A DNA stretch of 64,000 bases, from assembly GCA_964386195.1 (NCBI GenBank), contig CAYLTE010000003.1, forward strand, positions 99-64,098, read 5' to 3'. Made by a program: the position numbers and the translations under genes. Of this stretch, positions 1,411 through 47,800 are shown in pieces (the first letter of the stretch is position 1; every line of letters begins with the position of its first letter). This stretch comes from an uncultured Burkholderiales bacterium. GTDB lineage: Bacteria; Pseudomonadota; Gammaproteobacteria; Burkholderiales; SHXO01. Under the pieces are notes generated by a model. That model had not been told where the DNA came from, searched no databases, and saw nothing but the letters and a program-made list of their open reading frames with translations.

Positions 1411-1465
1411 AACCCCTCCGTGGGTTGTGAGATAAGTCTGACAAGAGCTTTACTGAGAAAGTTCC

Positions 1466-5489: not shown

Positions 5490-5611
5490 TATTGGTTTTC
5501 CTCGTTGGCCAGATCACACAAGAAACACTGGCATGTATAGCTCGTAACCCATCCTTCAATAACGTCTTCCGGACGTGCGAGGTATCCCAAGGAATAGAAA
5601 TAATCACTCAT
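5489..5611 (-). CDS. small ORF (40 aa), not in the ORF track
   Basis: ATG at 5609-5611 overlaps the upstream stop by 8 nt, and its TAA overlaps the nuclease ATG (TAATG). Product MSDYFYSLGYLARPEDVIEGWVTSYTCQCFLCDLANEENQ. It fills an otherwise empty 114-nt gap. Confidence 0.5.
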   Translation of the reverse strand: MSDYFYSLGYLARPEDVIEGWVTSYTCQCFLCDLANEENQ

Positions 5612-7421
5612 GACTCGCCCTCCATTGTCCATTGATGATGTTGACCAAGCTCCGCTTGCCGTTCGCATAGATCAAGCAGTGTGTATGCAGCCACGAGGAC
5701 GGACCTCGATTGTACTCCAGCGTCAGCCGGGAACTGGTGCCGACCTGGTATGCGCCCTCCATGATCCCGGGCGAGTGCGAGTGCCCGATGATCGTACGCT
5801 CGCCGATGCGGCTGAAGCCCTTGCGTGACCCGCGTGCACCATTGGCGCCCTGATCGCCGTGGTAGCCGACCTCGATACCACAAATGCGGAAGCTCTCGTC
5901 CCGCGCCAGGAAGTGTGTGCGGGATGCGCACTTCATCTTCTGCTTCGCCCAGTAGACGAAGGGGTCGATGGTCTGCGCCCCCGACTCGCCCATCCTGGTA
6001 CCGAGCATCATGGCCTCGAACGTGCGCGCCCAGAACACACAGTTCACCGGGTCCGTCTTCGGGTTCGCCTCGCGCACCCAGCGTGCGATCACGTCGGGGT
6101 GGTTGGAAGGCACGAACACGTTCCGGCAATCTTTAGGCGTGCAGCGATCCACAAAATCGAACGTCTTCTGCAGGGCATTCTCGACGTTGTTCAGCCCGGC
6201 GTGGTGCTTCGCATACTCGATGAACGGGTTGTCGCGGTGGTGGTGGTTGCGTGCGTAGCCATCGTGAATATCATGCCACACCAAGTACGCGGGCTTCAGG
6301 GCGGCCACGATGCCGGCGGGGCCAAAAGTCGCCTCGACTACGCGCGGATCCACGAACTCCTCGTGTGTGTCGCCCATGACCAGTCCGGCAAGTTGCTCGA
6401 CCTTCCGCACTTTCTCGCCGGCGTACTCGCGGTCCAGGTCCATAAACGAGCCATCCTTGACGGCGTTCAGTTGTCGCAAATGAAAGGTCTTGCCGACGAT
6501 CTCCACGATACAGGCACCGTACGTGTGATGGAAGTCGCCCTTCTTGCCGGCCTTCGTTGGCGAGTAGTTCTTCATCGTTACCGCGCCCGTGGTCGTCATG
6601 ATTTTGGGCAGCTTCGCCTGCGGCGTCGGCACAGTGTTCAGTTCCAGCTTGGGGTGACCGATAATAGCAGAGTTCGCGCCGGAAATCGACTCGAAGCCCT
6701 GCAGCGGGGCGGATGCCGTAGGCTGGGTCTTGATGTCCGCCAGCAGCATGAGGTTGGGGTTCAGGCGCATGCGCTTGTCGAACAGGTACGGCGCCAACTC
6801 AGGCGCCCACCAGTCGTCGCTGTTCGCAGCCTTGCTCCAGTGGGACGTGGGGTTCTTGTAGCGGTACGGGATCACCAGCAGTTCGGCGGCGTTGTGCTTG
6901 CAGTACGTCAACAGCGACTGCAGGAACGCCTTATGCACCGGCGTCGCGTTCTGCGCAGCCGTGATGACGAAGCGCTTCACCTCTGCGGGCGTCTGCAGCG
7001 CGCGATGCCGCTGAGTAACTTGCGCCGCATCAAGCACTGCTGCCTTGGCTGGCATCTTCTTGCCGCGCGGTTTCACCGTGGAGGATAGCCCAAACGCCGC
7101 CGCGCGATTGATTCGCGCCCGCAGCGTTTCGCGCGGCATCTTTAACGCCCGGGCCGCGGCACTCAAGCTGCCATGGCGGGTAACCGCATTCAGCGCAGCT
7201 TGTGCAAGTCGCTTTGGCAGTCGGGTCATTCGCACCGGTGCAGCGCAGTCTGCTGGCGCGACCGTTGGTTTCAGGTTAAGTGCCCGGGCGCGGGCAGCAC
7301 GGGACTGCAACGTGGCGCGCGGGATCTTGGTTGCGCGCTCCGCCGCAACGGCGCCGCCATGCTTTGTGATGGCGTCCAGCGCGGCCTGAGCAACTTCGCG
7401 AGATAAGGGGGTCGTGGTCAT
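5604..7421 (-). CDS. calcineurin-like metallophosphoesterase with tandemly duplicated N-terminal HTH-like module
   Basis: Motifs GDTHEEFVD, WHDIHDG, PSNHPD, GYHGD and GHSHSPG in canonical order. The N-terminus carries two ~48-aa repeats (AQAALDAITKHGG...PRATLQSR and AQAALNAVTRHGS...PRETLRAR). ATGA coupling at 7419-7423. Confidence 0.8.
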   Translation of the reverse strand: MTTTPLSREVAQAALDAITKHGGAVAAERATKIPRATLQSRAARARALNLKPTVAPADCAAPVRMTRLPKRLAQAALNAVTRHGSLSAAARALKMPRETLRARINRAAAFGLSSTVKPRGKKMPAKAAVLDAAQVTQRHRALQTPAEVKRFVITAAQNATPVHKAFLQSLLTYCKHNAAELLVIPYRYKNPTSHWSKAANSDDWWAPELAPYLFDKRMRLNPNLMLLADIKTQPTASAPLQGFESISGANSAIIGHPKLELNTVPTPQAKLPKIMTTTGAVTMKNYSPTKAGKKGDFHHTYGACIVEIVGKTFHLRQLNAVKDGSFMDLDREYAGEKVRKVEQLAGLVMGDTHEEFVDPRVVEATFGPAGIVAALKPAYLVWHDIHDGYARNHHHRDNPFIEYAKHHAGLNNVENALQKTFDFVDRCTPKDCRNVFVPSNHPDVIARWVREANPKTDPVNCVFWARTFEAMMLGTRMGESGAQTIDPFVYWAKQKMKCASRTHFLARDESFRICGIEVGYHGDQGANGARGSRKGFSRIGERTIIGHSHSPGIMEGAYQVGTSSRLTLEYNRGPSSWLHTHCLIYANGKRSLVNIINGQWRASHE

Positions 7422-8110
7422 CAGGCTTGCTTGTCGTTCTCTTCCATCGGTTCGACCTTGACCCACTCCGCCGGCGTGGTCATCAGCAACTCGACCCCGC
7501 GCTCCAGGCGCTCCAGGGAGTCATTGTTCCAGAGTTGCCGTTCGCCGGGCAGGATGGTCAGCGGCACTGCGCTGGCGTGCGCGCTGGCAATAACGCCTTC
7601 GCCGCGATGAACATGCCAGATGTTTCCGCCGAACCGGTCGCCGAACGCGCCAGTCTTGATCCATTCGCGCTCATTCTCGAAGCGCGTACCGCACTCGACA
7701 AAGTGCTGCGGCGCATGCTCAGGGTACTGGTAGATCTTCTGCAAGCCGAAGATGAAGTCTTCCGCGCGGTCCAGCCAGTAGTTCGGGGTCTGTGCGCGGC
7801 GATACTCGGTGCCCCACCATTGGAGGACCTGGCGCGGTGACAGCGGAGTATCGCCCGAGTCAATGAATTCCTTCAGCACGTTCGTGAACCCAGAATCAAG
7901 GCAGTTCTCGCCCGCGAGTTCCGCGAGCGGTATTTCCTTGGTCTCGCGATTCCGCAACAGCGACTCGTCTTCAAGCGCGAATGCGTTGCGCACCTCGGCG
8001 TACAGCGCATCGCTGAAGGCAAACTTCACGAAGCCGAACGTACGGACCAGGATGTCCGCGACTGAGTCTTTTCCGGCGCCTGCCGGTCCTGCGAGTCCAA
8101 TGACAATCAT
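7421..8110 (-). CDS. P-loop kinase, deoxynucleoside-monophosphate-kinase-like
   Basis: MIVIGLAGPAGAGKDS Walker A at the N-terminus; GGAGGG RBS. Family assignment is from recalled similarity to phage dNMP kinases. Confidence 0.72.
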   Translation of the reverse strand: MIVIGLAGPAGAGKDSVADILVRTFGFVKFAFSDALYAEVRNAFALEDESLLRNRETKEIPLAELAGENCLDSGFTNVLKEFIDSGDTPLSPRQVLQWWGTEYRRAQTPNYWLDRAEDFIFGLQKIYQYPEHAPQHFVECGTRFENEREWIKTGAFGDRFGGNIWHVHRGEGVIASAHASAVPLTILPGERQLWNNDSLERLERGVELLMTTPAEWVKVEPMEENDKQA

Positions 8111-8126
8111 ATACCCTCCAGAAAAA

Positions 8127-10121
8127 TTACTTCGCCTCGTACCACGTATCACCGATGCCGCTGTCCGATGCCAGCGGGATGTCCTGCCCCCACACTGGTC
8201 GCTGCTTCATCGTCGCTGCCATAAAGTCCCGACACTGCTCTGCAAATTCTTCCGGCACCACGCACACGATGTTGTCATAACACTCCGTCGCGACCTTGTA
8301 GCCGGCCTCGTGTATGGCGATCATCTGCGCACCGACGATCTCTTGCTCTAGAAGCTGCGCGACGTTGTTGGTTGCTGAGCCTCCGTAGATGTGAACGCGC
8401 GACCTGCCATCCCAGTAGGTCGCCTCGCCAGAGTCAGACCGCTGCAGTCCAGGATAGTTCAACCGTGCGCCCGAGGGAGCGACGATGCACTCCTTCTCGG
8501 TGTAGAGCACGCCGCGCGGGCCAAAGTGTACCCGCTCGCCGCGGATCATGGCGTTGATGACGCCCTCCATCGTGGACCACAGTCCGGTCTTGCTGTCCGA
8601 GATCTGCCGGTTCGACTGGCGCCAGAGTTGCACAATACCATTGGTCACCGCGCAGTGGATCAGTCGGTCGCCCATCTCCAGCCGACTCGGCATCTGCGAT
8701 ACGGTCTCGACATTCTTGGGGTTGTTCAGGAAGCGCGTGGGATCGATCTGCATCGCCACCATATCGCGCTCGGTGAACTGGATCGGGGGTGCGCCCAGGT
8801 GTCCCTTCAAGAAGTTGAAAGCAGCAGTGTACCACCCTTGCTGGAACAGAAAGCTCAGTTCACTGATCTTACCCACCTGACCGGGGATGAAGTCTTCCTC
8901 AGGGCGCTTCTTGCGATCAACAGGGCGCCCGTAGATACGCGTGGCAAACTCCGAGTACACGTCCCGACCCTGGGCGAACGCCTCAACCTTGTCCTGCTGC
9001 CCTGCGAGCCAAGCGGTCAGGCGCGCCTGAATCTGAGAGGAGTCTGCGGACACGACTTTGCAGCCCTCCGGCGCGCGAATCGACCGTTTGATGACCGTCA
9101 TCTGTGGGTTGGCCTTGTTCACAGAGGTCAGGTTCATCCAGTTCATGCCGTCGCCCGCGGATGCCCGCTGGGTATGCGTGCCGTTCGACTTGATGTACAC
9201 CGGCAGCGGCCCGCGTCGCGCGCAGTCCAGGAAGCGCTGGGCGCGCGTCTCGATGATAGTGGACTTCACAGACAGGCGCGTCTCCGCGAGGAACCGAATA
9301 TCCTCATCCTGATCCTCCAGCAACTCCTGCATGCCGGGGTCCGTCTTGGCGAACGCAAAGATCGTCTTCGGAGAGCCGTCCGGATTGGGCTTACCCAGCT
9401 TGGTCGGCGCAGCGCGGCCATGCAGCTTCAGTATCTGTGCGAACTTGTCGGAAGAACTGAACAGCGACTTGTCATAGCCACACTTGGCGAGCAACGCCGC
9501 CTTGCGCTCTTGCTCAGCGAGCACGGCCTGCTCCAGCAGGGCTACGTCCCCCTGGAACACGGGCTCGGTAAACATCCGGGTCTTCAGATCAATCAGCTTC
9601 AGTTGCTGCTCCGTGCACTGCGGCAGGTACAGTTGTGCCAGTGCGTATTCGCCGTCGCAGTCTTCCATGCAGTACGACGTGAAGTTGTGAAGCTCGTCCC
9701 GGGAGAAGTCCTCCAGGTGTTTGCCCTTGGCCATGCCAAGAACTTCCACCCGCTTCACGCCCAGGTTGTGCCGGCGCAGGCACGAGCCCAGATCATGCGG
9801 TACCTTCGGACCATCCACGATACTCGACATGGGGATGGTGTCCAAGATGAACCCGGGCGATACGCCGTACTTCCAGTACAGGATCGCCGCATCGAACTGC
9901 GCGTGATGGCTCAGAAGTGCCGTATTCGGCCAATCCACCTCTTCGCGAATGAACTGTTCCGCGCGCTCAGGCAGCACCCAGAAGGAAGGCTGCGCGTTAA
10001 ACTTGAAGCCCCAGATCAGCACCTCGAACCTGGGGTCGCGAATGTACGCCTCGTTGGTCATCTTGCTCAACGAGTATTCCGAATCGAAGTAGGTCTCGGC
10101 GTCCGCGGTCAGGATGTCCAT
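8127..10121 (-). CDS. family A DNA polymerase with 3'-5' exonuclease domain
   Basis: Exo I ADAETYFDS; motif A VSADSSQIQARL; motif B GKISELSFLFQQG; motif C ECYDNIVCVV. ATG at 10119-10121 with AAGGAA RBS. Confidence 0.92.
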   Translation of the reverse strand: MDILTADAETYFDSEYSLSKMTNEAYIRDPRFEVLIWGFKFNAQPSFWVLPERAEQFIREEVDWPNTALLSHHAQFDAAILYWKYGVSPGFILDTIPMSSIVDGPKVPHDLGSCLRRHNLGVKRVEVLGMAKGKHLEDFSRDELHNFTSYCMEDCDGEYALAQLYLPQCTEQQLKLIDLKTRMFTEPVFQGDVALLEQAVLAEQERKAALLAKCGYDKSLFSSSDKFAQILKLHGRAAPTKLGKPNPDGSPKTIFAFAKTDPGMQELLEDQDEDIRFLAETRLSVKSTIIETRAQRFLDCARRGPLPVYIKSNGTHTQRASAGDGMNWMNLTSVNKANPQMTVIKRSIRAPEGCKVVSADSSQIQARLTAWLAGQQDKVEAFAQGRDVYSEFATRIYGRPVDRKKRPEEDFIPGQVGKISELSFLFQQGWYTAAFNFLKGHLGAPPIQFTERDMVAMQIDPTRFLNNPKNVETVSQMPSRLEMGDRLIHCAVTNGIVQLWRQSNRQISDSKTGLWSTMEGVINAMIRGERVHFGPRGVLYTEKECIVAPSGARLNYPGLQRSDSGEATYWDGRSRVHIYGGSATNNVAQLLEQEIVGAQMIAIHEAGYKVATECYDNIVCVVPEEFAEQCRDFMAATMKQRPVWGQDIPLASDSGIGDTWYEAK

Positions 10122-10363
10122 CGCGGTTCCTTGACCAGTTGGATGCGGACATCTCGTACGATTTTGCGCCCCTGGCGAATACACAGCAAACGGATATACC
10201 CCTTCTCATAAATATCGGGGAAGGTCGCACGTACGCGCATGAATTCTCCGATCGACAACTTGATTGCGCGCACATTAACCCCGCCGCGCCACATCAGATA
10301 AAGCCAACTGGCGATGTGGTGCCCGAGTGAAGGCCGCGAGAGCGGCAGCGTACCTTGGCTCAC
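10109..10363 (-). CDS. hypothetical protein (84 aa)
   Basis: ATGA coupling to the upstream gene and a 13-nt overlap with the polymerase start; locally lower GC and protein-like sequence. Confidence 0.6.
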   Translation of the reverse strand: MSQGTLPLSRPSLGHHIASWLYLMWRGGVNVRAIKLSIGEFMRVRATFPDIYEKGYIRLLCIRQGRKIVRDVRIQLVKEPRWTS

Positions 10364-11061
10364 GCGGTATTTCCTCGCCGCTTCGTGGGAATGAACTTGC
10401 GCTTCCAGCGATTGAATGCACGCATGAACGGAAAGCGCGCGCTCTCCAGATTCTCCATTTTCTCCAGCAGCCCTGTTGCCATATATGCCTGAGTCTCGTC
10501 CATGAACACGGCTTCGCTGTATCGCTGCGCCGCCAGCGCTGCCGCAATGGTCTTGCGTGCGTCTGCGGGCAGCGCTTCCGTAAGGGTATCCATCGCCTCA
10601 CGATACTGGGGCAACAGGTAATACATGGCGTGCGCGATCTCATGCTCTATCACCGAGGTCTGCTGCGTCACTGCCCCGATGATATAAAACTGCCCGCGCT
10701 GATGCTGCTGAACCACCGTGGCGATGCGCGCAAAACGAATATCCCAAACGGACAACTCCGGCAGCGGTAGCTGCAGGAACGCTTCGACGGCCTCGCCGGG
10801 GATGTTGTACCCCTGGAAGTCCTCGAAGTACGAAAACATATGTGGCGCGGGCTCATTTTCCTGTCGGGTTTCTCCGATGTACCAGTGCATGAATTGGCTC
10901 AGCGTAAAAGCCTTACCGCGGAACTCCGGGTTTCCCGACTCGTAGAATTCCTGCGGGCGGATGAACAGCAGGCCAAGATCGACGGGGCTGTCCGCAGTGA
11001 CCAGCCAGGCGCCGGCTTTTGCAATGCGCTCGATGGTGAAGCCGTCCACGTGGAACTTCAT
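10360..11061 (-). CDS. hypothetical protein with HExxH motif (possible metallopeptidase)
   Basis: HEIAHAMYY motif; ATGA coupling at 11058-11061. Confidence 0.7.
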   Translation of the reverse strand: MKFHVDGFTIERIAKAGAWLVTADSPVDLGLLFIRPQEFYESGNPEFRGKAFTLSQFMHWYIGETRQENEPAPHMFSYFEDFQGYNIPGEAVEAFLQLPLPELSVWDIRFARIATVVQQHQRGQFYIIGAVTQQTSVIEHEIAHAMYYLLPQYREAMDTLTEALPADARKTIAAALAAQRYSEAVFMDETQAYMATGLLEKMENLESARFPFMRAFNRWKRKFIPTKRRGNTA

Positions 11062-11603
11062 TCTGCATCCTTGTAGAACAGCGGGCAGACTTCGAAGAAT
11101 CGCGCGATGAACTGCTGCTTCGCTTCCGCGGGGGTCCAGCAGAATAGTTGGCGATTGGCAGGCGCGGGGGCCGACTCCGCGCCATACCACGCTGCAGCCG
11201 ACAAGCCCGGGACTGTGGGTAGCAGTACTTCGCGCTCGCGCATCAGCATGGCCTGGTCTGCGACATGCACCTCTTCCGGAAGCTGGCGCGGTAGATCAAA
11301 CTTTTCCGCGATCACGGCCCAGTTCAATGCCTCCAGGTCCGCATAGTTCTCCAGGTGTCGCTTCACCGGACTGGCTACGTCCGTCACATACGCTTCCGTG
11401 GCGTCATGCAGCAGTGCCACCAGGGCAAGTTCCTCAGGCACGCAGTGTGACACATGCACAGAGTGCTCCGCCACAGAGTAAAATGTGCGCGCGTGTCCTG
11501 TGAAGCGGCACTGCATCGACAGCGAGTGTGCAATGTCAATCAGCGCCACCTCGTTCATGCGCGGGTCCAGCGGCCAGTAGACGCCGCCGGAGTACCGCTG
11601 CAT
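11058..11603 (-). CDS. HD-domain phosphohydrolase (YfbR-like 5'-nucleotidase type)
   Basis: VAEHSVHV ... LLHDATEAYVTDV (H...HD...D pattern). Confidence 0.8.
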   Translation of the reverse strand: MQRYSGGVYWPLDPRMNEVALIDIAHSLSMQCRFTGHARTFYSVAEHSVHVSHCVPEELALVALLHDATEAYVTDVASPVKRHLENYADLEALNWAVIAEKFDLPRQLPEEVHVADQAMLMREREVLLPTVPGLSAAAWYGAESAPAPANRQLFCWTPAEAKQQFIARFFEVCPLFYKDAE

Positions 11604-11623
11604 GAAGCTGCCCTTGCGCGCGG

Positions 11624-12430
11624 TCACGGGGCGGGCCGACGTTCCGGTGCGACGTGCAAGAGCACGTAGGCCATCGGGACCAGGTAGGGCATGTTGTAGA
11701 CCAGGTTCCGGTCCTCGGCCGCCGGCAGCGGGTACGGGAGCTTGACCACCTTCTCTTCCTCGGCGGTGTGAATGGCATCCCACTCCGCTGCGGCGGTCAT
11801 CACGGCGAAGTGATGGACCCAGATGCTTTCTTCCTCGGACGGATAGAACTCCTCCGTGCGGAAGTGCAGCCAGCGGTCAGCGCTGATGTAGACGCCGGCC
11901 TCCTCGCCAAACTCGCGGGACATCGCCTGGCACCGGCGCTCGCCGGGCTCAACCTTGCCGCCAATGCCGTTGTACTTGCCGGCCTGCCAGTCGGGGCGAA
12001 GTTTCTCGATCAGCGCGACTTCTTTGCCGTCCGGGCTGAAAGCGTAGCCCACGACGTAGTCAGCAAAGCCGGGTTCGGGCGTGTCCGCATCTGCGCGCTG
12101 CGCCGCATCCGGCTCCTTCAGTACGAGCGCAGGGGGCGTCTCGGCTGCGGCAAGCCCGTACACTTCCCCTGCGTCTACGCGGGCAACCTGGATACCTTCT
12201 GCGGTATTTTTCAGGAGGGAGATCGCGGCGCCCGAGGTCGCCACATCACGGCCGGTGCTTGTGCCTGCGGCCGTCGTGCCTGCAGCGAGGATTGCCTGCA
12301 CGCGCGCCTCCACGTCTGACAAGTCCGCAGGAGGAGCCTTCGCCTCGCGAGTCACGGCAAGCCCGGCGATCGACGCGGGAACGGTGGCGACATCATTTTC
12401 TGCAATGTTGTGGGCCTCTTGCTCGTTCAT
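11624..12430 (-). CDS. Nudix hydrolase with long Ala/Thr-rich N-terminal extension
   Basis: Nudix box GGKVEPGERRCQAMSREFGEEAGV (GX5EX7REUXEEXGU). Confidence 0.85.
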   Translation of the reverse strand: MNEQEAHNIAENDVATVPASIAGLAVTREAKAPPADLSDVEARVQAILAAGTTAAGTSTGRDVATSGAAISLLKNTAEGIQVARVDAGEVYGLAAAETPPALVLKEPDAAQRADADTPEPGFADYVVGYAFSPDGKEVALIEKLRPDWQAGKYNGIGGKVEPGERRCQAMSREFGEEAGVYISADRWLHFRTEEFYPSEEESIWVHHFAVMTAAAEWDAIHTAEEEKVVKLPYPLPAAEDRNLVYNMPYLVPMAYVLLHVAPERRPAP

Positions 12431-12431
12431 A

Positions 12432-13634
12432 TCATCCTTTCACGCACAGCACCTGCTTCAGGGTGTGCTCAATGTCCACCAGTTCTACCTGGGCAGCCAT
12501 CACCGCGTCGATGGACTTGTACGCGGCGGGGGTTTCGTCAATCACCTCGGCATCCTTGCGACACTCCACGCCTGCAGTATCGCGGGCATGATCTTCCAGT
12601 GTGAAGCGCTTGCGCGCCTCATTGCGACTCATCGCGCGGCCGGCACCATGCGAGCAGGAGCAGAAGCTGTCCCGGTTCCCCTTGCCTCGGACGATAAAAG
12701 ACTTCGCACCCATACTGCCGGGGATGATGCCCAGTTCGCCCGCTTTAGCCGACACTGCGCCCTTCCGCGTGAGTAGAACATTCTCGCCAAAATGGCGCTC
12801 GAACGACGCGTAGTTATGGTGGCAATTCACTGCCATCTCGCCGGCAACCTCGACCGGCTGTACAAAATGCCGTTGAACCGCTAGCAGCGTTGCGTGCATC
12901 ATCTGGCGGCGGTTCTCCGCAGCGAAGCGCTGCGCCCAGTGCAACGCTTCCATGTATTCTCCGAAGTGCTGCGAGCCCTCGGGGATATACGCCAGGTCTG
13001 CATCCGGCAGGTTGATGAACCAGCGGCGCATGTCCTCCTTGGCCTTCTCGATAAAGTACTGCCCGATCGCGTTGCCAATGCCGCGCGAGCCAGAATGCAG
13101 CATCACCCATACCCGCTGGCGCTCATCCAGGCACATCTCGATGAAGTGGTTGCCGCCGCCAAGTGTGCCAATATGATGCGGTGCCCGCTGGGCTGCCCGC
13201 TCCAGCTTCTGATGTTTCGTTGTCGGCTTGGTCAGCCCGGCATACCAGGCACCATATCGCGGCGAACTGTGCGCGCCACGGTCATTCGGGCCGCCATTGT
13301 CAGTACGGCCGTGCGGGACGGCAGCTTCGATTGCACTGCGGATAGCGAACAGATTGTCCGGCAGGTCTTCCGCCGTCAAGTTAAGCGGCACGGCCATCAT
13401 GCCGCAGCCGATATCCACGCCCACTGCGGCGGGGATAATCGCCCCGCGGGTTGCGATCACACTGCCGACCGTCGCGCCCTTGCCGTAATGCACATCCGGC
13501 ATAACGGCAAGATGGGAATGGATGAAGGGCATCCGGGAAATATTGTACAGTTGCTGGCGGGCCTGGTCTTCAACCGGAACCCCGTCAGTGAACATCTTGA
13601 TCGGCACGCCACCTTCGAGTTTTTCAACCTGCAT
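12432..13634 (-). CDS. rtcB: RtcB-family RNA 3'-phosphate/5'-OH ligase
   Basis: Colinear RtcB signatures: MPDVHYGKG, GVDIGCGM, GTLGGGNHFIE, HSGSRG, NCHHNY, GSMG, SCSHGAGR. ATG at 13632-13634 with GAGG RBS; the ORF-track start at 13646 is a TTG. Confidence 0.93.
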   Translation of the reverse strand: MQVEKLEGGVPIKMFTDGVPVEDQARQQLYNISRMPFIHSHLAVMPDVHYGKGATVGSVIATRGAIIPAAVGVDIGCGMMAVPLNLTAEDLPDNLFAIRSAIEAAVPHGRTDNGGPNDRGAHSSPRYGAWYAGLTKPTTKHQKLERAAQRAPHHIGTLGGGNHFIEMCLDERQRVWVMLHSGSRGIGNAIGQYFIEKAKEDMRRWFINLPDADLAYIPEGSQHFGEYMEALHWAQRFAAENRRQMMHATLLAVQRHFVQPVEVAGEMAVNCHHNYASFERHFGENVLLTRKGAVSAKAGELGIIPGSMGAKSFIVRGKGNRDSFCSCSHGAGRAMSRNEARKRFTLEDHARDTAGVECRKDAEVIDETPAAYKSIDAVMAAQVELVDIEHTLKQVLCVKG

Positions 13635-13642
13635 AATCTGCC

Positions 13643-13855
13643 TCAATGATAAGTCATCTGGTCAGGCACACGGCACAGCCCGATGGACACAAGATACGCT
13701 GCCTGCTCCAGCAGTGCAGAGGGGACGCACTCCGCCTCGATCATGTCCTGCATCAGAATCACGATCTCCCAGGTGGACAGCAGCCCCGCCCGGAACGCGT
13801 GCCAGCGGCGCATCGGCACAGGCTCCCGGTAGTGCATGACATAGGCTTCGCTCAC
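13643..13855 (-). CDS. hypothetical protein (70 aa, GTG start)
   Basis: ORF abutting rtcB; no motif recognised. Confidence 0.55.
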   Translation of the reverse strand: MSEAYVMHYREPVPMRRWHAFRAGLLSTWEIVILMQDMIEAECVPSALLEQAAYLVSIGLCRVPDQMTYH

Positions 13856-13866
13856 GCAGCTTCGCC

Positions 13867-14337
13867 TTACCGGCCCTTGTACAGGTGCGGCGTGCGCAGC
13901 GCGGCGTTGTGCCGCTTCAGGTCGCGGTACTTCATCTTAGGCGTGCCGCGCTTCAGCAGGGTCGGGTACGGTACTGGGTACAGCGTGGTCTGCACCACGT
14001 GCTCCAGCTTGCCCGTCTGCTCGTTCTTCTGCAGGACATGCACCGGCGAGCGCGGGGTCTTGCCGTCTGCACTCATGATAACCTTGGTCACGGTGCGCGA
14101 GACCACTCGCCGACGCGCGCCCACGATGGGGCGCAGGATGGGGCCGAAGCGTCGGCACACCTGCTCGAAGTTCGGCTTCAGTTTGCGATCCACCGGGCCA
14201 AGCTCGCGAATCACCCGCTCGCGCGTCTCGAATGTGGGCATGCGACCGATGTGATGCAACTTCGGCTTCTCGTACTCCGGAATGGTTTTGCCGGGCTTAT
14301 ACCCGGCTTTGTGTGCAAGACTCGTGACGTGTTGCAT
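13867..14337 (-). CDS. hypothetical basic protein (156 aa)
   Basis: ATG with GGAGGGG RBS; Lys/Arg-rich. Confidence 0.7.
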   Translation of the reverse strand: MQHVTSLAHKAGYKPGKTIPEYEKPKLHHIGRMPTFETRERVIRELGPVDRKLKPNFEQVCRRFGPILRPIVGARRRVVSRTVTKVIMSADGKTPRSPVHVLQKNEQTGKLEHVVQTTLYPVPYPTLLKRGTPKMKYRDLKRHNAALRTPHLYKGR

Positions 14338-25903: not shown

Positions 25904-26101
25904 ATGAGTACAATTTTTTTGCTGCCTTCGCCGGACCTTGTTCTTCGGCTTGAGACCCGCGCGCAGATCCGTCGAAATGCGATTACGCGCAAAAGCGTTC
26001 AAGACGGAGCACCGGATCGGATCGCAGATCTGCTTGAGGAAGCGGCAGCCGAGCTCCGCCGTGTGAATGCTATTCTGGAAAAATTAAATCATGCTGCGTG
26101 A
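25904..26101 (+). CDS. hypothetical protein (65 aa), first rightward ORF
   Basis: ORF with no clear SD; short leader if the TAAAAT -10 is used. Confidence 0.45.
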   Translation: MSTIFLLPSPDLVLRLETRAQIRRNAITRKSVQDGAPDRIADLLEEAAAELRRVNAILEKLNHAA

Positions 26102-26315
26102 ACCACTCACGTTTGACAACGCCACTGGGCGAATTATTGATCCCGTAGCCCCCGTGCAAATAGAGGACATCATTGATAAAGGTGCTCCCTCTGCGCGGGC
26201 GGCCGCGGGCTTCGGCCCGACGCGAAAAATGCTGGATACCGCGCCAATCCACACCGCCCCCTGGCTGACGCCGGAATTGGCGGAGCAGGAAATGGCGATC
26301 GGAGGCTTCAAGTGA
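26091..26315 (+). CDS. hypothetical protein (74 aa)
   Basis: Overlaps its neighbours by 11 nt and 4 nt in the operon direction. Confidence 0.55.
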   Translation: MLREPLTFDNATGRIIDPVAPVQIEDIIDKGAPSARAAAGFGPTRKMLDTAPIHTAPWLTPELAEQEMAIGGFK

Positions 26316-26821
26316 GCGAGCCCACAAACGCGCTACCGGAAATCTCCACGCAACGGCAGGCGCAGCGACTGCAGGCGATCCCAGCCGTGTACAAGACCCA
26401 GTACGGTCGGCTCGCGATGGAGCTCGCGCTGAAGCTGGATGAGCCTGCGACAATATTCGCAAAGCACGGGTACGATCAGGACGGCGCACTGGCCCTGCTG
26501 GACACCGCAGAATTCACCGCGCTGCTGGTCAACGCGGAGAAGGAAGTCAAGGAATCCGGGCTGTCGTTCCGCACCAAGGCCCGCGCGATGGCAGAGGATC
26601 TGCTGACGCACGGTTACGAGATCGCGACCGACGATCTGGCCAGCGCCAGTGTGCGCGCGGACCTGATCCAGTGGTTTGCACGCATTGGCGGGCTCGAACC
26701 GCCGAAAGCGGACGGAAAAGATTCGGGTAGCGGCGGCGGGATCAACCTGACGCTGAACTTTGCAGGCGCACCGCCGCAACACGTTGTTGGCGGCGAAACA
26801 TTGACCATTCAAGGAAACTGA
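26312..26821 (+). CDS. possible terminase small subunit (169 aa, GTG start)
   Basis: Position upstream of terminase large, size, helical N-domain and Gly-rich C-tail. No diagnostic motif. Confidence 0.45.
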   Translation: MSEPTNALPEISTQRQAQRLQAIPAVYKTQYGRLAMELALKLDEPATIFAKHGYDQDGALALLDTAEFTALLVNAEKEVKESGLSFRTKARAMAEDLLTHGYEIATDDLASASVRADLIQWFARIGGLEPPKADGKDSGSGGGINLTLNFAGAPPQHVVGGETLTIQGN

Positions 26822-27261
26822 TGAGCTACTTTGTTGACTTCATGCGCGAGAGCAACTGGATCGAGGGCATCAAGCGCCCGCCGACTCAGGAGGAAGTTAC
26901 GGCACTGAAAGATTTCCTCGCAGTGCCGGTCGTGACGGTCGCCGCGCTGCAGGACTTCGTGAAGGTGTGCCAGCCGAACGCGTCCGTGCGCGCGCACCTG
27001 GGCCAGGACGTTCGCGTCGGCAACCACGTCCCGCCGCCCGGTGGCAAGGCCCTGGTCGAGGAGTTCAAGGCGCTGCTGAAGAAGATCAACGCCGGCGCAC
27101 TGAACGCTTACCAGGGGCACTGCGCGTACGAGACGCTTCACCCGTTCACCGACGGCAACGGTCGCTCGGGCCGTGCACTGTGGCTGTGGCAGATGCGCGG
27201 GGACGCGCCGCTCGGGTTCCTGCACACGTTCTACTACCAGACGCTGAGCGCACTGCGATGA
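26821..27261 (+). CDS. minimal Fic-domain protein (146 aa)
   Basis: Canonical Fic motif HPFTDGNGRSGR. N-terminal SNWIEG matches the (S/T)xxxE(G/N) inhibitory-helix motif. Confidence 0.88.
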   Translation: MSYFVDFMRESNWIEGIKRPPTQEEVTALKDFLAVPVVTVAALQDFVKVCQPNASVRAHLGQDVRVGNHVPPPGGKALVEEFKALLKKINAGALNAYQGHCAYETLHPFTDGNGRSGRALWLWQMRGDAPLGFLHTFYYQTLSALR

Positions 27262-27506
27262 GCGCCCGCGTGTTCGTGCATCCGCGGTGCTGCACGCCGC
27301 CTGCTTCGACTGTGTTCGAGAGCACGTTGCTGCAGCACGGGTTCGACCTGAAGCAGGTCATGATCGGCCCGCGGACGCCCGGCGGGAACCGGGAGCTTGT
27401 CCGTCTGGTCGAAGAGGAAGGTGTGAAGCAGGTGTTCGAGCGCATGGACGGCACGCGGTTCGCGCACCGCATGGGGCAGATACACAGTGCGCCGGAGGTG
27501 GCGTGA
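27258..27506 (+). CDS. hypothetical protein (82 aa)
   Basis: ATGA coupling to the Fic stop. Confidence 0.6.
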   Translation: MSARVFVHPRCCTPPASTVFESTLLQHGFDLKQVMIGPRTPGGNRELVRLVEEEGVKQVFERMDGTRFAHRMGQIHSAPEVA

Positions 27507-27685
27507 TGACGATATGGAGCACCGACACAGGCCCCGCGCCGGGCGTTGACAAAGTACGGCACGGCGAGTTGCCTGCGCCAGTGTTTCCGCTCCGGCCCCT
27601 AATGTGCGCGGAGTGCCAGGCAAAGCTTGCTCGCGGAGAGTCTGCGATATGCGGATGCGTGCTGTCGCAGCCGGTGATTTCATGA
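27506..27685 (+). CDS. hypothetical protein (59 aa) with CxxC...CGC
   Basis: TGATG coupling; contains MCAECQAKLARGESAICGC. Confidence 0.5.
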   Translation: MTIWSTDTGPAPGVDKVRHGELPAPVFPLRPLMCAECQAKLARGESAICGCVLSQPVIS

Positions 27686-27891
27686 TCCCTGATACCGGCA
27701 TCCGCAGCGCACGCTGGGTCATGCGCAGCCTGAACGGCTCACTGTGGGCCACGCGGGATCGCTACACCACCGCGCAGGTGCGGAAGTTCCAGCTTGCGAC
27801 ACCGGTGCGCCCGATCGAGGGCATCGCAGCGCACATCGTGAAGTCTGGCACGCTGAGCGCGGCCGACAAGTACGGACTGGGCCTAGCATGA
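27682..27891 (+). CDS. hypothetical protein (69 aa)
   Basis: ATGA coupling at both ends. Confidence 0.55.
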   Translation: MIPDTGIRSARWVMRSLNGSLWATRDRYTTAQVRKFQLATPVRPIEGIAAHIVKSGTLSAADKYGLGLA

Positions 27892-29375
27892 TCGACATGA
27901 ACATCAGCTTCCCGCCCACTGTGTCCGCGTACATGCAGTCGGACGCGCGGCACCGGTACATCGTCGGGCCGTTCGGCTCGGGCAAGACGGTCGGGAGCAT
28001 CACAGAGTTGATCCGCCGCTGCGCCATGCAGAAGCGATCGACACTAACCGGCAAGCGCAAGAGTCGCTGGGCCGTGGTGCGCAACACCATGCCGGAGCTT
28101 CGCGAAACGACGATGAAGTCGTTCTTCGACTGGTTCCCGGATGGTTCGATCGGGCGGTACATGAGCACGACGAAGACCTACCACGTGAACCAGGGCGACA
28201 TCGAAGCCGAGATCGTGTTCTGCGCGTTGGACGATGAGCGCGACGTGAAGAAGCTCCTGGGTATGGAGCTTACCGGCGCGAACCTGGCCGAGTTCCGCGA
28301 GATCCCCCGCGCGATCGTGGAGACGCTGGACGGCCGCCTCGGGCGGTACCCACGGATCACCGAGGGCGGCCCCTCCTGGGTCGGCATGTGGGGGGACTCG
28401 AACATGCCGGAGGAAGAGTCGTACTGGTGGGCGAAGATGGAAGGGCGGAACCCGGACGACATCAAGAGCGCGATGCCGAACGACTGGGCGATATTCAAGC
28501 AGCCCGCGGCGATGATCCGACACGGTGCGAACACAGCCACGACCCGTGCAACGTACACGCTGAACCCGCTCGCGGAGAACCTGGCGAACCTGCCGGCGGA
28601 CTACTATCCGAACCTCGTCAAGGACAAGAACGACGACTTCATCCGTGTCAACGTGCTGATGGAGTACGGGCGCACCAAGGGCGGCAAGCCGGTGCACCCC
28701 GAGTTCGATCGCTCGATCCATGTGGCGCCACGAGTGATCGTGCCCAACCCGGAGCTTGTGCTGCTGTTGTGCGCGGACTTCGGACTGACCCCCGCCATGG
28801 CGCTGAAGCAGCAGGACGCGTTCGGGCGGGTGCTGACCCTGGACGACATCGCGTGCTTCGACATGGGGATCGAGAAGGCGCTGGACCTCAAGATGATTCC
28901 GCTGCTGAAGAAGAAGTACGAGGGCTACGAGATCGTCGTCACGGGCGACCCGTCCGGCGAGAGGCGCTCGGACAGCGATGAAACTACGTGTGTTGACATT
29001 TTCAAGTCCCGTGCGTACAAGAAGTACTTTCGCAAGGTGCGCATGGCTTCGACCAACGCGGCACTCGCGCGCCGGGAGGCGACAGATCACTTCCTGACTC
29101 CGCGGCCGGCAGCGTATCTCGTGAGTCCGAACTGCGAGGCGACCATCGCCGCGCTGGGCGGGAAGTTCATGTACAAGAAGCACAAAGATGGCCGACACTC
29201 GGAAGAGATCGACAAGAACGATGAGTCGCACATCGGCGAGGCCAACGAGTACGGAGACCTGTACTTCAAGGAGGGGCGTCGTAGGAAGGCGGAGCAGCGC
29301 CCGGACCAGTTGAACTGGGAAGAAGCATACCGGGCACAACGCACCACGGGCAACCACTACGCGCAACCGCGCTGA
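27888..29375 (+). CDS. terL: terminase large subunit
   Basis: Walker A GPFGSGKT and Walker B-like VFCALDDE, with C-terminal nuclease-like acidic motifs. Immediately upstream of the portal gene. Confidence 0.88.
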   Translation: MIDMNISFPPTVSAYMQSDARHRYIVGPFGSGKTVGSITELIRRCAMQKRSTLTGKRKSRWAVVRNTMPELRETTMKSFFDWFPDGSIGRYMSTTKTYHVNQGDIEAEIVFCALDDERDVKKLLGMELTGANLAEFREIPRAIVETLDGRLGRYPRITEGGPSWVGMWGDSNMPEEESYWWAKMEGRNPDDIKSAMPNDWAIFKQPAAMIRHGANTATTRATYTLNPLAENLANLPADYYPNLVKDKNDDFIRVNVLMEYGRTKGGKPVHPEFDRSIHVAPRVIVPNPELVLLLCADFGLTPAMALKQQDAFGRVLTLDDIACFDMGIEKALDLKMIPLLKKKYEGYEIVVTGDPSGERRSDSDETTCVDIFKSRAYKKYFRKVRMASTNAALARREATDHFLTPRPAAYLVSPNCEATIAALGGKFMYKKHKDGRHSEEIDKNDESHIGEANEYGDLYFKEGRRRKAEQRPDQLNWEEAYRAQRTTGNHYAQPR

Positions 29376-29385
29376 AGGATGAAAG

Positions 29386-31431
29386 ATGGCTGATACGGTA
29401 CCTGAACTGAACGAAGAGCAGATGAAGAGTCTTGGGCATCGCTTGCAGTCGCTGTTCCTCGTGCACAAGACTGATCGAAAGGCCGCGGAAGAAAAATGGC
29501 TGAAGAACATGCGCCAGTTCCGCGGGATCTACGATCCGGATGTTGTGATACCGGCGGACTGCTCCAAGGCGTACCCGAAACTCACCCGCCGGGTGGTGAT
29601 CGGCACGATGGCCCGCCTGATGCAGATGCTATGGCCGCAGACCGAGAAGAACTATAGTGTGCAGCCTTCGCCGATGCCGTCGCTCAGCACGGAGCAGTTG
29701 CAGGAAGTTCTGGACGCCCTCGTCGCGCAGAAGGCAGAGGAGCAGCAGATCGACCCGAAGGATGTCGTGTGCACGGATGAGGAGATCGAGAAGGCCATCG
29801 TGGAGTACGCGAAGGGCAAGGCCGAACGCATGGAGTTGAAGATCGATGATGATCTGCAGGAGATGGGGATCATCACGATCGCGCGCCGGGTGGTGTTCTC
29901 GGCAGTGCTGTACAACCTGGGTATCATGATTGGCCCGCTCAACAAAGAGGTCAAGGCCCGCACGTGGACCAAGAACCCGAACACCGGCAAGTATGAGGCG
30001 AAGGAGGTCACGCAGTACAAGCCACTGTACGAGTTCCAGCCGGTATGGGAGCACTATCCCGACATGACTGCGAAGTCACTGGATAAGCAGTCCGGCGCGT
30101 TCGATCGGCACTGCATGACGCGCTCCATGGTGGAAGAACTTGCAGACCGTCCGGACTTCATGGGTGATCGCGTCCGCGCATGGTTGCGTACACACCTCAC
30201 GGGAAACTACCAGCCGCTGTGGTGGGAGACTGAGATCAAGGGTGAGCCCAAGAGCGACAAGACTACCGTGCAAAACGAAGCAGGTCGCAAGTACGAGGTA
30301 CTGTCGTACTGGGGCGAGGTTACCGGCCATGAGCTTGCCGCTTGCGGCGTGACGATCGCGGCTGCGGACCTGGGCCGGACATTCTGGGGGAACGTCTGGC
30401 TGATCGATAGCACGGTCATTAAGTGCAAACTTGCTCCGATAGGGCAGGATGTCAAGCAGCACCATTACTTCGTGTTCGAGGAAGATGATCTGTCGATCCT
30501 CGGCAACGGCCAGTGCGACACGATGCGTGACTCGCAGATCTCCTTGTGCGAGACCACACGCGCAGGCCAGGACAACTTGAGCGTCATTGGTCCGATGGTT
30601 GAGGTCAATGATGATCTGCTGACTCCCGGGCAGGACACGAAGATTCGCAAGCACAAGACGTTCCATCGGGAAGACACGGGTGCCAGCGCCGCATATCCGG
30701 CGGTGCGGGACATCAGCGTGAACAGCCACCTGACGGACATTCTTGCCTGGCGCGCCGCGCTGCTGGACTTCGCGAACCAAGAGTCCGGACTCCCCCCGCA
30801 GTCGATGGGGGATGTGTCACAGGGTGGCTCGGAAGCACTGCGCACGCAGGCGAACGCCAGCATGTTCCTTGGGGCCGCGGCGCTGCCGGTGCGGGATACG
30901 GTGCGGAACTACGACTCATTCACGGTTTCGTACATTTCCGCACTGGTGAAGTGGAACAAGAAGTTCGCGCCCAACCCCAGCCGCGACGGGGACTATCACA
31001 CCATCGCCCGCGGCTCCACCAGCTTGATCGCGAAAGAAGTCCTGGGCGCATCGCTTGACCTCCTGCGGCAAACGCTGTCGGAAGACGAACTGCCGCACAT
31101 CAAGTCGCGCAAGCTGCTTATCGCGCGCCTGAAGGCTCGCGACATTCCGGTGGATGAACTGTTGGAGGATGAGGAAAAGGCGAACCAGACTATCGCGCGG
31201 AACGCTGAGGTACAGCAACGCGCGCAGGCCCTGCAGGAGTCGGAGGTCGAGGCCAAGGTTCGAGGCGTGCTGTCGAAGGCCGTGCGTGACATCGCGGCGG
31301 CTCGCAAAGATGACGCTTCGATCAGCCAAGGTGCCGCGCAGCTTCTGCTGGAAGCGCTGGAGCAGGGCGATGCAAACCGGATAAAAGAGATCGCAGCAAC
31401 CAAGACGGAGGCCGCAAGTGGCAATAGTTAA
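29386..31431 (+). CDS. portal protein
   Basis: 681 aa, directly after the terminase; N-terminal ...KWLKNMRQFRGIYDP... is typical of portals; acidic C-terminus. Confidence 0.85.
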   Translation: MADTVPELNEEQMKSLGHRLQSLFLVHKTDRKAAEEKWLKNMRQFRGIYDPDVVIPADCSKAYPKLTRRVVIGTMARLMQMLWPQTEKNYSVQPSPMPSLSTEQLQEVLDALVAQKAEEQQIDPKDVVCTDEEIEKAIVEYAKGKAERMELKIDDDLQEMGIITIARRVVFSAVLYNLGIMIGPLNKEVKARTWTKNPNTGKYEAKEVTQYKPLYEFQPVWEHYPDMTAKSLDKQSGAFDRHCMTRSMVEELADRPDFMGDRVRAWLRTHLTGNYQPLWWETEIKGEPKSDKTTVQNEAGRKYEVLSYWGEVTGHELAACGVTIAAADLGRTFWGNVWLIDSTVIKCKLAPIGQDVKQHHYFVFEEDDLSILGNGQCDTMRDSQISLCETTRAGQDNLSVIGPMVEVNDDLLTPGQDTKIRKHKTFHREDTGASAAYPAVRDISVNSHLTDILAWRAALLDFANQESGLPPQSMGDVSQGGSEALRTQANASMFLGAAALPVRDTVRNYDSFTVSYISALVKWNKKFAPNPSRDGDYHTIARGSTSLIAKEVLGASLDLLRQTLSEDELPHIKSRKLLIARLKARDIPVDELLEDEEKANQTIARNAEVQQRAQALQESEVEAKVRGVLSKAVRDIAAARKDDASISQGAAQLLLEALEQGDANRIKEIAATKTEAASGNS

Positions 31432-44867: not shown

Positions 44868-47800
44868 ATGGCCCTTGATCCGTTCGGCCCGAGCGAAGGT
44901 CTCGATCCGTCCGTCCCCGTAGCTGGCCTCGATCCTTTCGCACCTGACCCCGCCGCCCCGGGTGCGTTCAGTAAAGGCATCCGTGTCGGCGTTGGCGGTG
45001 TCAAGTCTACACTCTACGGCACGGGCGCGCTTGCCGCCCGCGTGGTGGGGGCGAAAGATCTTGAGCAGGCCGCGCTTACTAAAGCCGCTGCAGCGCAGGA
45101 AGAAGTCGCTGGCGACATTCAGACGATCGAGCAGGTGGATTGGACGGATCCGAGTTCCATTGCGAACCAGTTCAAGTTCCTGCTCGGACAGGCGATCCCC
45201 TCGATCGCGACCACTGTTGCCGGCGGTGTCGTTGGCCGCGGTGTCGGCACCGCACTGTCCCGACGCATGGCCGCCCCGGCTGCCGCACAGGTACAGCGTG
45301 CGAGCACGATCGCCGGCGCAGCAGTCCCTAGTTTCTCAATGGGGGCAGGCAGCATCTTCCCGGAAGCTCTGGAGACTGGTGCTGAGAATCCTGCCGCCCG
45401 CGCCATTGCCGGCGGTACCGCAACCGCCGCACTGGATCTGCTTCCCATCCTGGCCGCTGAGCGTTATTTGAAAGCCGCCGGTAAAGGCGGGGTGGGCTCG
45501 CTACTGAAGGGTGCTGCCAAGGGCGCTCCGGTTGGTGCCGTGCTGGAAGGCGCACAAGAGACCGCACAGTCTGCCGTGGAACGCCTGGCCGCAGGACTGC
45601 CACTGAGCGGTCCCGAGGCACTGTCCGACTATCTCAACTCGTTTGCCGGTGGTGCCGTGCCGGGCTCCGTGATTGGCGCCGGTGTTGGTGCAGCCCGCGG
45701 GCGTCGTGGTGCACAACCCACACCCGAGCCGTTCCAGCCCCCAGCCGCGCCGCCGGTTGAGGAGCAGCCGCAGCCCCTGCCGGAGATTCTGCAAGGACCG
45801 GCGCTGGAGCAGCAGTTGTCTGACCAGGCGCTGTTCGCATCACTGAACCCGCCGGCAGACGTGCTGCCGCCCGCCCCGGATGCAGGCCCCGAGGTCACGC
45901 CGCAGCCTGGCTACAATCGCGCGATGGCGCCTGTGGCACAGGAGGCGGATTTTACTACGCTTGAAACGCTCCGGGCGCAGAAGCGCGATGCTGACGCGCG
46001 CCAGGCAGAACTGACTGCAGAACTGTCACGACCGGAAGGGCAGCGCCGTACCAAGCAGGAGATCACGCGCGAGCAGATGGACTTGCGTACCCAGATTGGG
46101 GCGCTTGATACCCAGATTGGGCAGTTGACACAGACGATCCGTAACCGCTTCGCCGCCGAGGATGCGGCTGCTGCGATTGAGGCTGCGCCGGATAAGGCGC
46201 CGGCGGCCGAACCCTTCTTCACCGAGTCTGGAGCGTTTAAACGCCCACAAGGTCAACCGACCGAGGCCGCGGAGCTTGAGGTCGCCCGCCAGAAACGATC
46301 GGTGGGCGCGTTGGTCTCCGCTCGCGAAGCCAAGCTGCTGCGGGATGCTGACCGGGCAGCACCGCCGGCGCCCGCAGTCATGCCGGTCACTACAAACCAG
46401 CCGCGCGAGCGCTTCAAGCAGGAGTCCCCGGCACGCCGTGCGGAAGTGATCGAAGGCGTGGCCGCGCAGTCGGTGGAGGATCACCTGAAGGGGCTCAAGT
46501 TCCGCAAGGGCACCGAGCCCCAGGCGGCCCAAGCACTGCGTAAAGCAGTGGCGGAGGCGGCGACTGCGCCGACCATTGAGGCCGCAGAGAAGGCGATCTT
46601 TGACGCTGCGATCAAGGCCCTGTCCGGCAAGGTGAACAAGGCGGACGCAGAGACCTTCGCGGAGAGCGTCGCCAAGGACGTTCGCTCCGCGCCGACGTTT
46701 TACTCGCAAGCCGCTGCCGCACAGCGCACTGACGTGATTGAGTTCTCGCACTGGGGCGACGCTACCACGCAGACCGATCCCGCGCGTATGGGCACCGGTG
46801 TCAAGGGCGCTGACTGGGCTCTCGCACAGGAAGTGGGGCTTCAGTACACCTCTGCCGTGGTCCGCGGTGCGCCGTACCGCGAGCCCGCGGTGCAGGGTAA
46901 GCCGGAGCGCGTGGGCACGCTGGCTGCAGATCGCGTTTACTCCGCCCGGACCGACGACCCGCTGCTGATCCAGGCGAAGGCAGACCTGCGTGCGCAGGGC
47001 ATCTTCAACGATGCGCTTGCGTGGATGCAGTATGCCAAGGCGGTTCGTGACCTGGGCTACGACGCGATGCTGTACGCCAATGGGCAGCTTCGTATCTTCA
47101 CGCCACAGCGCGTTCGCGCAGCCTCTCGCGCTGCTGTAGCGCCGAAGAAGCTGTCTGACCTGACGGCAAAGCTGGCGCCGATCGTAGCGACACATGCAGC
47201 GGCTGGCGGATCGTCCACCAATCTCGTGACAGGGCAGGATCTTGGCGGCACGGACAACTATACCGTATCGGTGCACAAGAACCGAGAGCGCACGTTCAAG
47301 CAAGCCCCGACAGAGGCGGACCTGCGCAAGTACGTCGAGGACAATGCCGACCTTCTGGCAGATCCGCAGAACATCCTGGGTACCTGGTATAACCGAGCGG
47401 ACAAGCTGCACTATGTTGACGTGTCCCGCACCGTGCGCGACCTCGCGACCGCACTGGACCTCGGGCGCAAGAACAAGCAGCACGCGATCTTCTACCTGGG
47501 CACGTTCGATGAGATCCCAGTGGGCAACGCGGAGGTCTACGGGCTGTCCCAACTCTACGCACAGCAGATGAGCCTGCCGCCGGCCGTCGCGCTGGAGTAC
47601 AAGCAGGTGCCGGTTGAGCGCATGACACTGGTGGCGGAGGCGTACGACTGGCTCCGCGACAATGCGACCGCGCTGGATGTTCGCATCCAGAACGTGTACG
47701 AGACCTTTGTGCAGGAGACAGAGAAGCAGTTCGAGTTCATCTCCAGGCACATCCGCATCGAACCGTGGCGCCAGGAGGGGCAGCCCTACGCGAACTCCCG

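Follow-up and report, generated by a model that had tools for sequence, protein, structure and literature searches.

The 64,000-nucleotide stretch considered here (the window, from an uncultured Burkholderiales bacterium) has on its + strand, at 26821-27261, an ATG-initiated open reading frame (ORF) for a 146-residue protein of the Fic family, a short distance upstream of the gene for the large terminase subunit (TerL) of a phage. Among Fic enzymes there are familiar bacterial toxins and effectors and, from more recent work, anti-phage defence proteins. The small phage protein (Fic hereafter) is dealt with below as a probable enzyme for the addition to, or removal from, a conserved host protein of adenosine monophosphate (AMP), and its gene as accessory cargo of the phage, with the alternatives weighed where the evidence relevant to each is given.

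A compact Fic protein and the genes beside it

The match of the 146-residue protein to Pfam Fic (PF02661) is 29.8 bits, the gathering cut-off being 24 (E=1.1e-6), and the active-site motif, which the initial annotation had considered perfect, is borne out, with HPFTDGNGRSGR at residues 107-118 fitting HxFx(D/E)(A/G)N(G/K)RxxR. An AlphaFold2 (AF2) model made with 54 homologues has a mean predicted local distance difference test score (pLDDT) of 93, seven helices and a flap hairpin at approximately residues 55-69. When this model was compared by Foldseek with the PDB, the top 50 matches were all Fic proteins (probability 0.99-1.00, query-normalized template modelling score, TMq, 0.45-0.65), and the best of them, Coxiella Fic2 (8cil), FICD, SoFic and CdFic, with TMq of about 0.6, are class II. 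A corresponding search of BFVD yielded distant viral Fic proteins only. The hidden Markov model and structural checks of the assignment are in agreement, and the protein is confirmed, from profile and model, as a genuine compact member of the Fic family, the match being far beyond chance.

Fic proteins of class II have an inhibitory helix N-terminal to the core, and here SNWIEG at residues 11-16 (S11xxxE15G16) fits the signature (S/T)xxxE(G/N) and precedes the Fic core in cis. In the AF2 secondary structure the predicted inhibitory helix, alpha-inh, comprises residues 3-14 and runs up to E15/G16; at the other end of the predicted layout the C-terminal helix finishes in YYQTL. When the first 70 residues were searched by phmmer against PDB sequences, in an attempt to anchor the inhibitory helix, there was no match. 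The family profile was also compared by hhalign with that of 45 canonical class II Fic proteins from bacterial loci (lead sequence 399 residues), giving Prob 99.8 in global mode and Prob 99.6 (E=1e-24) when the alignment was local. These values are to be read with a mild circularity in mind, the 45 having been picked for a motif located 125-136 residues N-terminal to their catalytic His. The alignment pairs ESNxIEG with aSSxIEG, HPFTDGNGRSGR with HPFxDGNGRxGR and YYQTL with YYxxL, and in local mode still takes in the inhibitory-helix motif. The earlier proposal that SNWIEG is an inhibitory-helix signature is to this extent upheld by the comparison with class II proteins. At the level of sequence the protein has the features that define class II, and in an enzyme of that class E15 would be expected to contact the second Arg of the motif (R118), at the site of the gamma-phosphate.

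What surrounds this core is minimal. Just 14 residues precede E15, and the chain stops 28 residues past the Fic motif, so that there is no C-terminal winged helix-turn-helix (wHTH) domain. Given the hhalign alignment and the short ends, the protein is best viewed as a SoFic-type class II enzyme reduced to its core. SoFic is also the closest PADLOC model, with residues 64-122 matching profile positions 145-209 of 361, but this match and that to PDC-S04 are confined to a catalytic core of some 60 residues, and the NCBIfam SoFic score of 22 bits is far under the cut-off of 550. Judged by its architecture the protein is not a SoFic defence system, as the full arrangement of approximately 360 residues with dimerisation helix and C-terminal domain is not present. 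Nor does it look like a class I FicTA toxin, there being no adjacent antitoxin to supply (S/T)xxxE(G/N) in trans: the motif was found in none of the neighboring products designated orf74, orf169, s82, s59 and s69.

The family is large. A word-indexed search returned more than 4000 homologues, most of them precomputed as PF02661, and the median length of the top 120 is 148 residues. When 1.84 billion cluster representatives were searched exhaustively with a profile, E<=1e-30 gave 769 clusters (at 50% identity) and E<=1e-10 gave 1284. E10, S11, I14, E15, H107, P108, N113, G114, R115 and S116 are invariant in alignments of 41-54 diverse members, G16 is conserved in at least 90%, and both strict motifs are present in 108 of the top 120 homologues. 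About 12% of viral copies have HPFTDCNGRSGR, with Cys where the canonical Fic motif has Gly/Ala, examples being the loci L048, L053, L059, L060, L064, L072, L080 and L083. The contigs of family members range from 33 to 67% G+C. A full-length member is present in just one of 50,697 deposited phage genomes, that of Roseobacter phage RDJL6 (Xiamenvirus); this protein, UFK26723, is annotated as hypothetical and has 44% identity over 94% of the query. A scan of bacterial contigs yielded, among the matches listed, two full-length members, both on short contigs of Acetobacteraceae metagenome-assembled genomes; generic HPFxDGNG Fic proteins make up most of that listing, which says little about bacterial distribution. 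A literature search for a phage-borne minimal Fic family of approximately 145 residues found no paper describing such proteins. The protein is, then, a very compact member of a known Fic class, and its family is without description in the literature searched.

The gene is one link in a chain of overlapping + strand ORFs that runs to TerL. The chain starts with orf74 (26091-26315, 74 codons), which has a homologue in the relative L091, and continues with orf169 (26312-26821, 169 codons), directly 5′ of Fic and retained across the phage lineage. On the 3′ side of Fic are s82 (27258-27506, 82 codons), specifying a lineage-conserved small protein; s59 (27506-27685, 59 codons), a variable cassette whose product has CxxC...CxC; and s69 (27682-27891, 69 codons). 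Then come TerL itself (27888-29375, 495 codons; phrog_2, E=4.5e-15) and a 681-codon gene for a portal/connector-like protein (29386-31431; phrog_332, E=4.4e-14), which is immediately 3′ of TerL in all the lineage relatives compared. The ATG at 27888 is backed by TerL homologues of 489-501 residues in L091, L092, L093 and L174. The three small downstream ORFs had been described as all ATGA-coupled. Their number and sizes stand, and ATGA overlaps are present at the Fic/s82, s59/s69 and s69/TerL junctions, but the s82/s59 junction, like that of orf169 and Fic, is TGATG with a 1-nt overlap.

Coding on the + strand is supported by the G+C content of third codon positions (GC3), which is 0.86 for Fic, 0.86 for s82, 0.81 for s69 and 0.87 for TerL; at 0.68 the support for s59 is weaker than for the other ORFs of the chain. 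As the GC3 of Fic equals that of TerL, its gene is not a very recent arrival in the lineage. An antisense candidate of 172 codons over the small ORFs (27234-27752, -) was rejected, with GC3 and homologues favoring the + strand. A second long antisense ORF, of 488 codons (28044-29510, -), overlaps TerL. Both have GC3 below that of the + strand genes, as is usual for spurious ORFs in high-GC DNA. Promoter-like sites are present upstream of the chain at 25261 and 25823, and no terminator-like site was seen on the + strand from 26091 to TerL.

The window otherwise represents a phage some 65 kb in size, with structural genes on the + strand and genes for helicase, DNA polymerase A, an RtcB-type ligase and primase on the - strand. 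A megablast search with window positions 24-32 kb gave no match among deposited phages. The structural region also has a single ORF of 2491 codons (44868-52343, +), which matches only PHROGs of unknown function, phrog_21376 and phrog_11358.

A variable slot and the wider neighborhoods of the family

A gene overlap-coupled into a chain that reaches TerL, with no terminator-like site in between, invites the suggestion, made in the initial annotation, of a function linked to DNA packaging, with Fic modifying the terminase, the portal or a host factor, and with one of the small downstream ORFs specifying its modulator. The placement of Fic between genes for a putative small and a large terminase subunit was part of the case, as was late co-expression with the packaging genes, which is presumed. 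On the 3′ side that description is correct, TerL matching phrog_2, but the candidacy of orf169 as small terminase (TerS) is by position only. Its product has no family match in Pfam, PHROG or NCBIfam, and its 20 homologues are all in related phages. Its AF2 model is all-helical and of low confidence (pLDDT 61), and the TerS structures 7joq, 7uxe and 2ao9 are among its top Foldseek matches at a non-significant E=0.4-4.

Comparison within the phage's own lineage is instructive. In five relatives the interval between orf169 and TerL has from three to eight small ORFs whose identity changes, with Fic present in two of the five. One of these is L091 (TerL 92% identical), which has Fic, s82, a short s59 and s69, and then, at 1666-2163 between its s69 homologue and TerL, about 500 bp with an uncalled, AT-richer ORF of approximately 160 codons that is not in the window, a further sign of cargo uptake by the slot. 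The other is L174 (TerL 68% identical), where five small ORFs precede Fic and where a 71-codon ORF and an s82 homologue follow it. The three without Fic are L092 (TerL 75% identical; ORFs of 58 and 61 codons, an s82 homologue and an ORF of 51 codons), L093 (60%; six unrelated small ORFs) and L177 (50%; ORFs of 76, 82 and 143 codons, an s82-like ORF of 126 codons, and ORFs of 42 and 71 codons). Another close relative, L003, with 92-94% DNA identity to the window, is without exactly the s59 cassette, its 82- and 69-codon ORFs abutting. This difference is a clean gain or loss of a single-gene cassette at overlap junctions.

A different type of example is L011 (IMGVR_UViG_3300002461_000106), a locus from a viral contig of 63.8 kb, positions 1034-12380 of the locus being colinear with 4779-14337 (-) of the window. 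The replication modules of the two share a DNA polymerase A that is 49% identical and three further genes. In L011, Fic (51% identical) is immediately upstream of the DNA polymerase gene, and the matching interval of the window has RtcB and no Fic. From the changing content of the slot together with the placement in L011 it follows that the orf169-TerL interval is a hypervariable cargo slot and Fic mobile cargo within it.

The small downstream ORFs fare no better as partners. For s82, s59 and s69, searches of Pfam, PHROGs, NCBIfam and PADLOC gave no family match, and none of the three accompanies Fic at any of 80 further viral loci. There are 15 homologues of s82, and its family is located just upstream of TerL with or without Fic, at 1569-1817 in L092, 7001-7246 in L174 (where the 71-codon ORF separates it from Fic) and 3963-4343 in L177, where the homologous sequence is the C-terminal part of the 126-residue protein; s82 may be more packaging-linked than the other small genes. 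A partial homologue of s59 is present in L091, and s59 is dispensable, while homologues of s69 are known only from the closest relatives, L003 and L091. There is a precedent for modulation in that AS1, a small downstream protein, regulates SoFic in E. coli (PMC12249575). Nevertheless, since the small ORFs lack the inhibitory motif and are not conserved near Fic, and since s82 also occurs without it, the role of dedicated modulator proposed for one of them is not supported, and they are better seen as other cargo or lineage genes.

Outside the lineage, 78 non-redundant IMG/VR loci were surveyed with flanks of ±6 kb, ORFs of at least 330 codons being scanned against PHROGs. TerL is a rare neighbor. 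Of the large ORFs downstream of Fic (n=77), five matched TerL phrog_2, three phrog_10250 and two a portal family, with integrases, DnaB, DNA polymerases, primases, helicases, methyltransferases and exonucleases among the other annotated ones; of those upstream (n=66), two were TerL, and most were helicases, DnaB, primases, polymerases, RecE-like exonucleases or ribonucleotide reductase. The TerL genes near Fic in other loci are of types different from that of the window. Among the 141 ORFs immediately flanking Fic each Pfam family appears at most twice, blastp clustering of all ORFs at Fic loci gave no shared neighbor, and when TerL, portal and small ORFs of the window were compared with the 80 IMG/VR loci by tblastn and phmmer nothing beyond Fic matched. 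Conserved linkage to terminase or portal genes, as would be expected of a component of a DNA packaging module, is thus not apparent from the sequences compared.

A packaging-linked function can cite the recurrence of Fic in the same slot in L091 and L174, besides the coupling to TerL and the AS1 precedent. However, L092, L093 and L177 keep the frame of TerS-like, TerL and portal genes without Fic, TerL is an infrequent neighbor across the family, and none of the small ORFs has the distribution or the motif of a partner. The idea is contradicted by synteny, is largely refuted, and is regarded as highly improbable. What the survey returned, a generic ‘moron’ without packaging linkage, is the outcome that the initial annotation had itself set against its proposal. 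Fic is swappable accessory cargo, common to many unrelated phages.

The settings in which it is found instead are mostly early ones. In RDJL6, Fic is in the early/replication region, flanked by small ORFs and an exonuclease-like gene and away from the terminase. One phage has it among small ORFs after DNA polymerase A. In one chromosomal prophage it is between a Cro-like switch region and the integrase gene, and in another it adjoins MazG-like, methyltransferase and dCTP-deaminase genes; these prophage copies are in early accessory regions. Gad2 is a phage anti-Gabija protein. In L084 (174-2663) Fic is part of an early operon with matches to Sequestin (PF21825), MarR, Gad2 (PF26128) and ThyX, which would fit an anti-defence neighborhood. 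The RtcB-type RNA ligase gene of the window (12432-13646, -; phrog_1075, E=3e-150) has a 66% identical counterpart in L063 (7073-8272), approximately 640 bp downstream of the Fic gene there. An association of RtcB with Fic is not claimed, as the adjacency is limited to one of about 80 loci.

Occurrence in prophages, which often carry defence genes, and the core matches to SoFic and PDC-S04 might be taken to indicate a phage-borne exclusion or defence toxin, i.e. one that would protect the infected cell or lysogen from competing phages by abortive, SoFic-like AMPylation. But the matches do not extend beyond the catalytic core, and the N- and C-terminal SoFic domains needed for toxicity are missing (PMC12249575). 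Further, the gene is within early lytic operons with no sign of a transcription unit of its own, and is present also in apparently lytic phages, that of the window included. An exclusion toxin is quite improbable.

Which reaction, and on what

The preferred reading makes Fic a glutamate-gated AMP-transferase/deAMPylase whose substrate would be a conserved bacterial host protein and not the packaging motor. It is given a probability of about three in four, and the activity is a predicted one. With a complete nucleotide-transfer active site and an N-terminal SxxxEG helix on a single chain, the helix Glu would block productive binding of adenosine triphosphate (ATP) and would also serve as the catalytic Glu for removal of AMP. 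The target would be a highly conserved bacterial protein, acted on during infection, and the position in the slot is that of cargo at the head of a rightward operon. Glutamate-gated bifunctional activity is expected because the same motif does both in characterised Fic enzymes. With the inhibitory Glu in place ATP does not bind productively, and AMPylation is released when the Glu is removed (PMC3667792), while the same Glu is required for deAMPylation in FICD and EfFic and is a suggested signature of bifunctionality (PMC6408439).

Several points weigh against this reading or the cargo status that goes with it. At least three members of the lineage have Fic in the slot before TerL, at 58-79% identity, and a lineage-specific benefit of the position is therefore possible. 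The survey of neighbors used a crude ORF caller and took in only ±6 kb per gene. Also, about 10% of family members are off the strict motifs, mostly by G16 being S, R, D or Q or by Gly-to-Cys in the Fic motif, so that activity may vary across the family.

Addition of AMP is the direction that would matter if Fic serves host takeover, with modification of a conserved host protein to stop or redirect a host process, and with the Glu in cis merely tempering the activity or being displaced after auto-AMPylation. All the ATP-binding and catalytic residues of HxFx(D/E)GN(G/K)RxxR are intact, and the flap hairpin and a conserved VRVG..PP segment are typical of target-binding Fic domains. The 33-67% G+C range of the phages with Fic implies a universally conserved target, and Glu-bearing single-domain Fic proteins are able to AMPylate (PMC6408439, PMC3667792). 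On the other hand, no conserved regulatory domain or partner able to relieve the inhibition is present. Secreted Fic effectors that AMPylate strongly, e.g. VopS and IbpA, are usually without the inhibitory Glu, but here it is invariant. Host takeover by AMPylation is less likely than not, but somewhat more probable than the counter-defence role considered next.

Two features speak for removal of AMP as the direction: the Glu is never lost, and the SoFic-type dimerisation helix and C-terminal domain are missing. Host Fic abortive-infection and toxin systems put AMP on essential proteins, e.g. SoFic on EF-Tu and FicT-type toxins on GyrB/ParE, and a phage deAMPylase may strip it off, keeping translation or replication running. 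Such a counter-defence role would draw, wholly by analogy, on the essential invariance in the family of a Glu needed for deAMPylation in FICD and EfFic (PMC6408439), and on the absence of the very parts that SoFic requires for AMPylation and toxicity (PMC12249575). Monomeric SoFic mutants are without AMPylation but keep constitutive deAMPylation (bioRxiv 10.64898/2026.07.09.737422; PMC12249575), and a Fic toxin-antitoxin complex has been reported as a GyrB deAMPylase (PMC13327609). The closeness to the SoFic model of PADLOC, and early accessory locations, once beside a Gad2-family gene and once beside RtcB, with its connotation of RNA repair, would be in keeping with it. Against it, monomerisation of FICD raises AMPylation, the opposite of what is seen with SoFic, and NmFic and other small Fic proteins of a single domain are capable of AMPylation when freed of auto-inhibition. 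Because of these two considerations the general claim, which leaves the direction open, is kept at the probability given above. Counter-defence by the protein of the window is possible but rather unlikely, and its extension to the whole family of approximately 145-residue phage proteins, as dedicated counter-defence deAMPylases made of a stripped class II core with the Glu retained, which would clear AMP from EF-Tu or from gyrase/topoisomerase IV, is more doubtful still.

On its own the window is ordinary: an accessory gene, readily placed in the Fic family, occupies a cargo slot of variable content. What interest remains is in a large family that keeps a regulatory and catalytic Glu invariant, and in the counter-defence role that this may reflect. 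Should the family reverse AMPylation-based host immunity, its members would form a new class of anti-defence enzymes and would offer a minimal scaffold for studying the switch between AMPylation and deAMPylation.

Relationship to known Fic systems

The closest counterpart is SoFic (Shewanella oneidensis SO_4266, and EcSoFic), a protein of about 370-400 residues with Fic_N, Fic and wHTH parts, which ranks first among PDB matches by sequence profile. The two have in common the Fic fold, HPFxDGNGRxGR, an N-terminal alpha-inh with SxxxEG on the same chain and a YYxxL helix after the core. However, the phage protein has 146 residues instead of about 370, with neither the N-terminal dimerisation helix nor the C-terminal wHTH, and just 14 residues precede its inhibitory Glu in contrast to 72 in SoFic (E73). 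The spacing from Glu to catalytic His is 88-95 residues in the phage family and 125-136 in canonical class II proteins. SoFic is specified by a chromosomal defence or regulator gene, whereas Fic here is phage-borne.

NmFic and EfFic (class III, approximately 190-200 residues) and CdFic (class II, solved as a construct of 235 residues) are likewise small, stand-alone and Glu-bearing, and for EfFic both AMPylase and deAMPylase activity have been demonstrated (PMC6408439). In comparison the phage protein is shorter by 45-90 residues, with similarity in sequence restricted to the motif region, and the inhibitory helix of class III is C-terminal, not N-terminal as here. Metazoan FICD/HYPE, also class II, is a top fold match in which an N-terminal inhibitory Glu switches between AMPylation and deAMPylation. 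It differs in having tetratricopeptide repeats and transmembrane segments, in dimerising via its Fic domain and in having BiP as target, and identity is only about 18%. Class I FicTA and the Doc/Phd pair of phage P1 parallel the present case in being Fido-fold proteins on mobile elements, Doc even being phage-encoded. In class I, though, the inhibitory helix comes from a separate antitoxin, where the phage Fic has its motif in cis, and Doc, with a variant motif, acts as a kinase.

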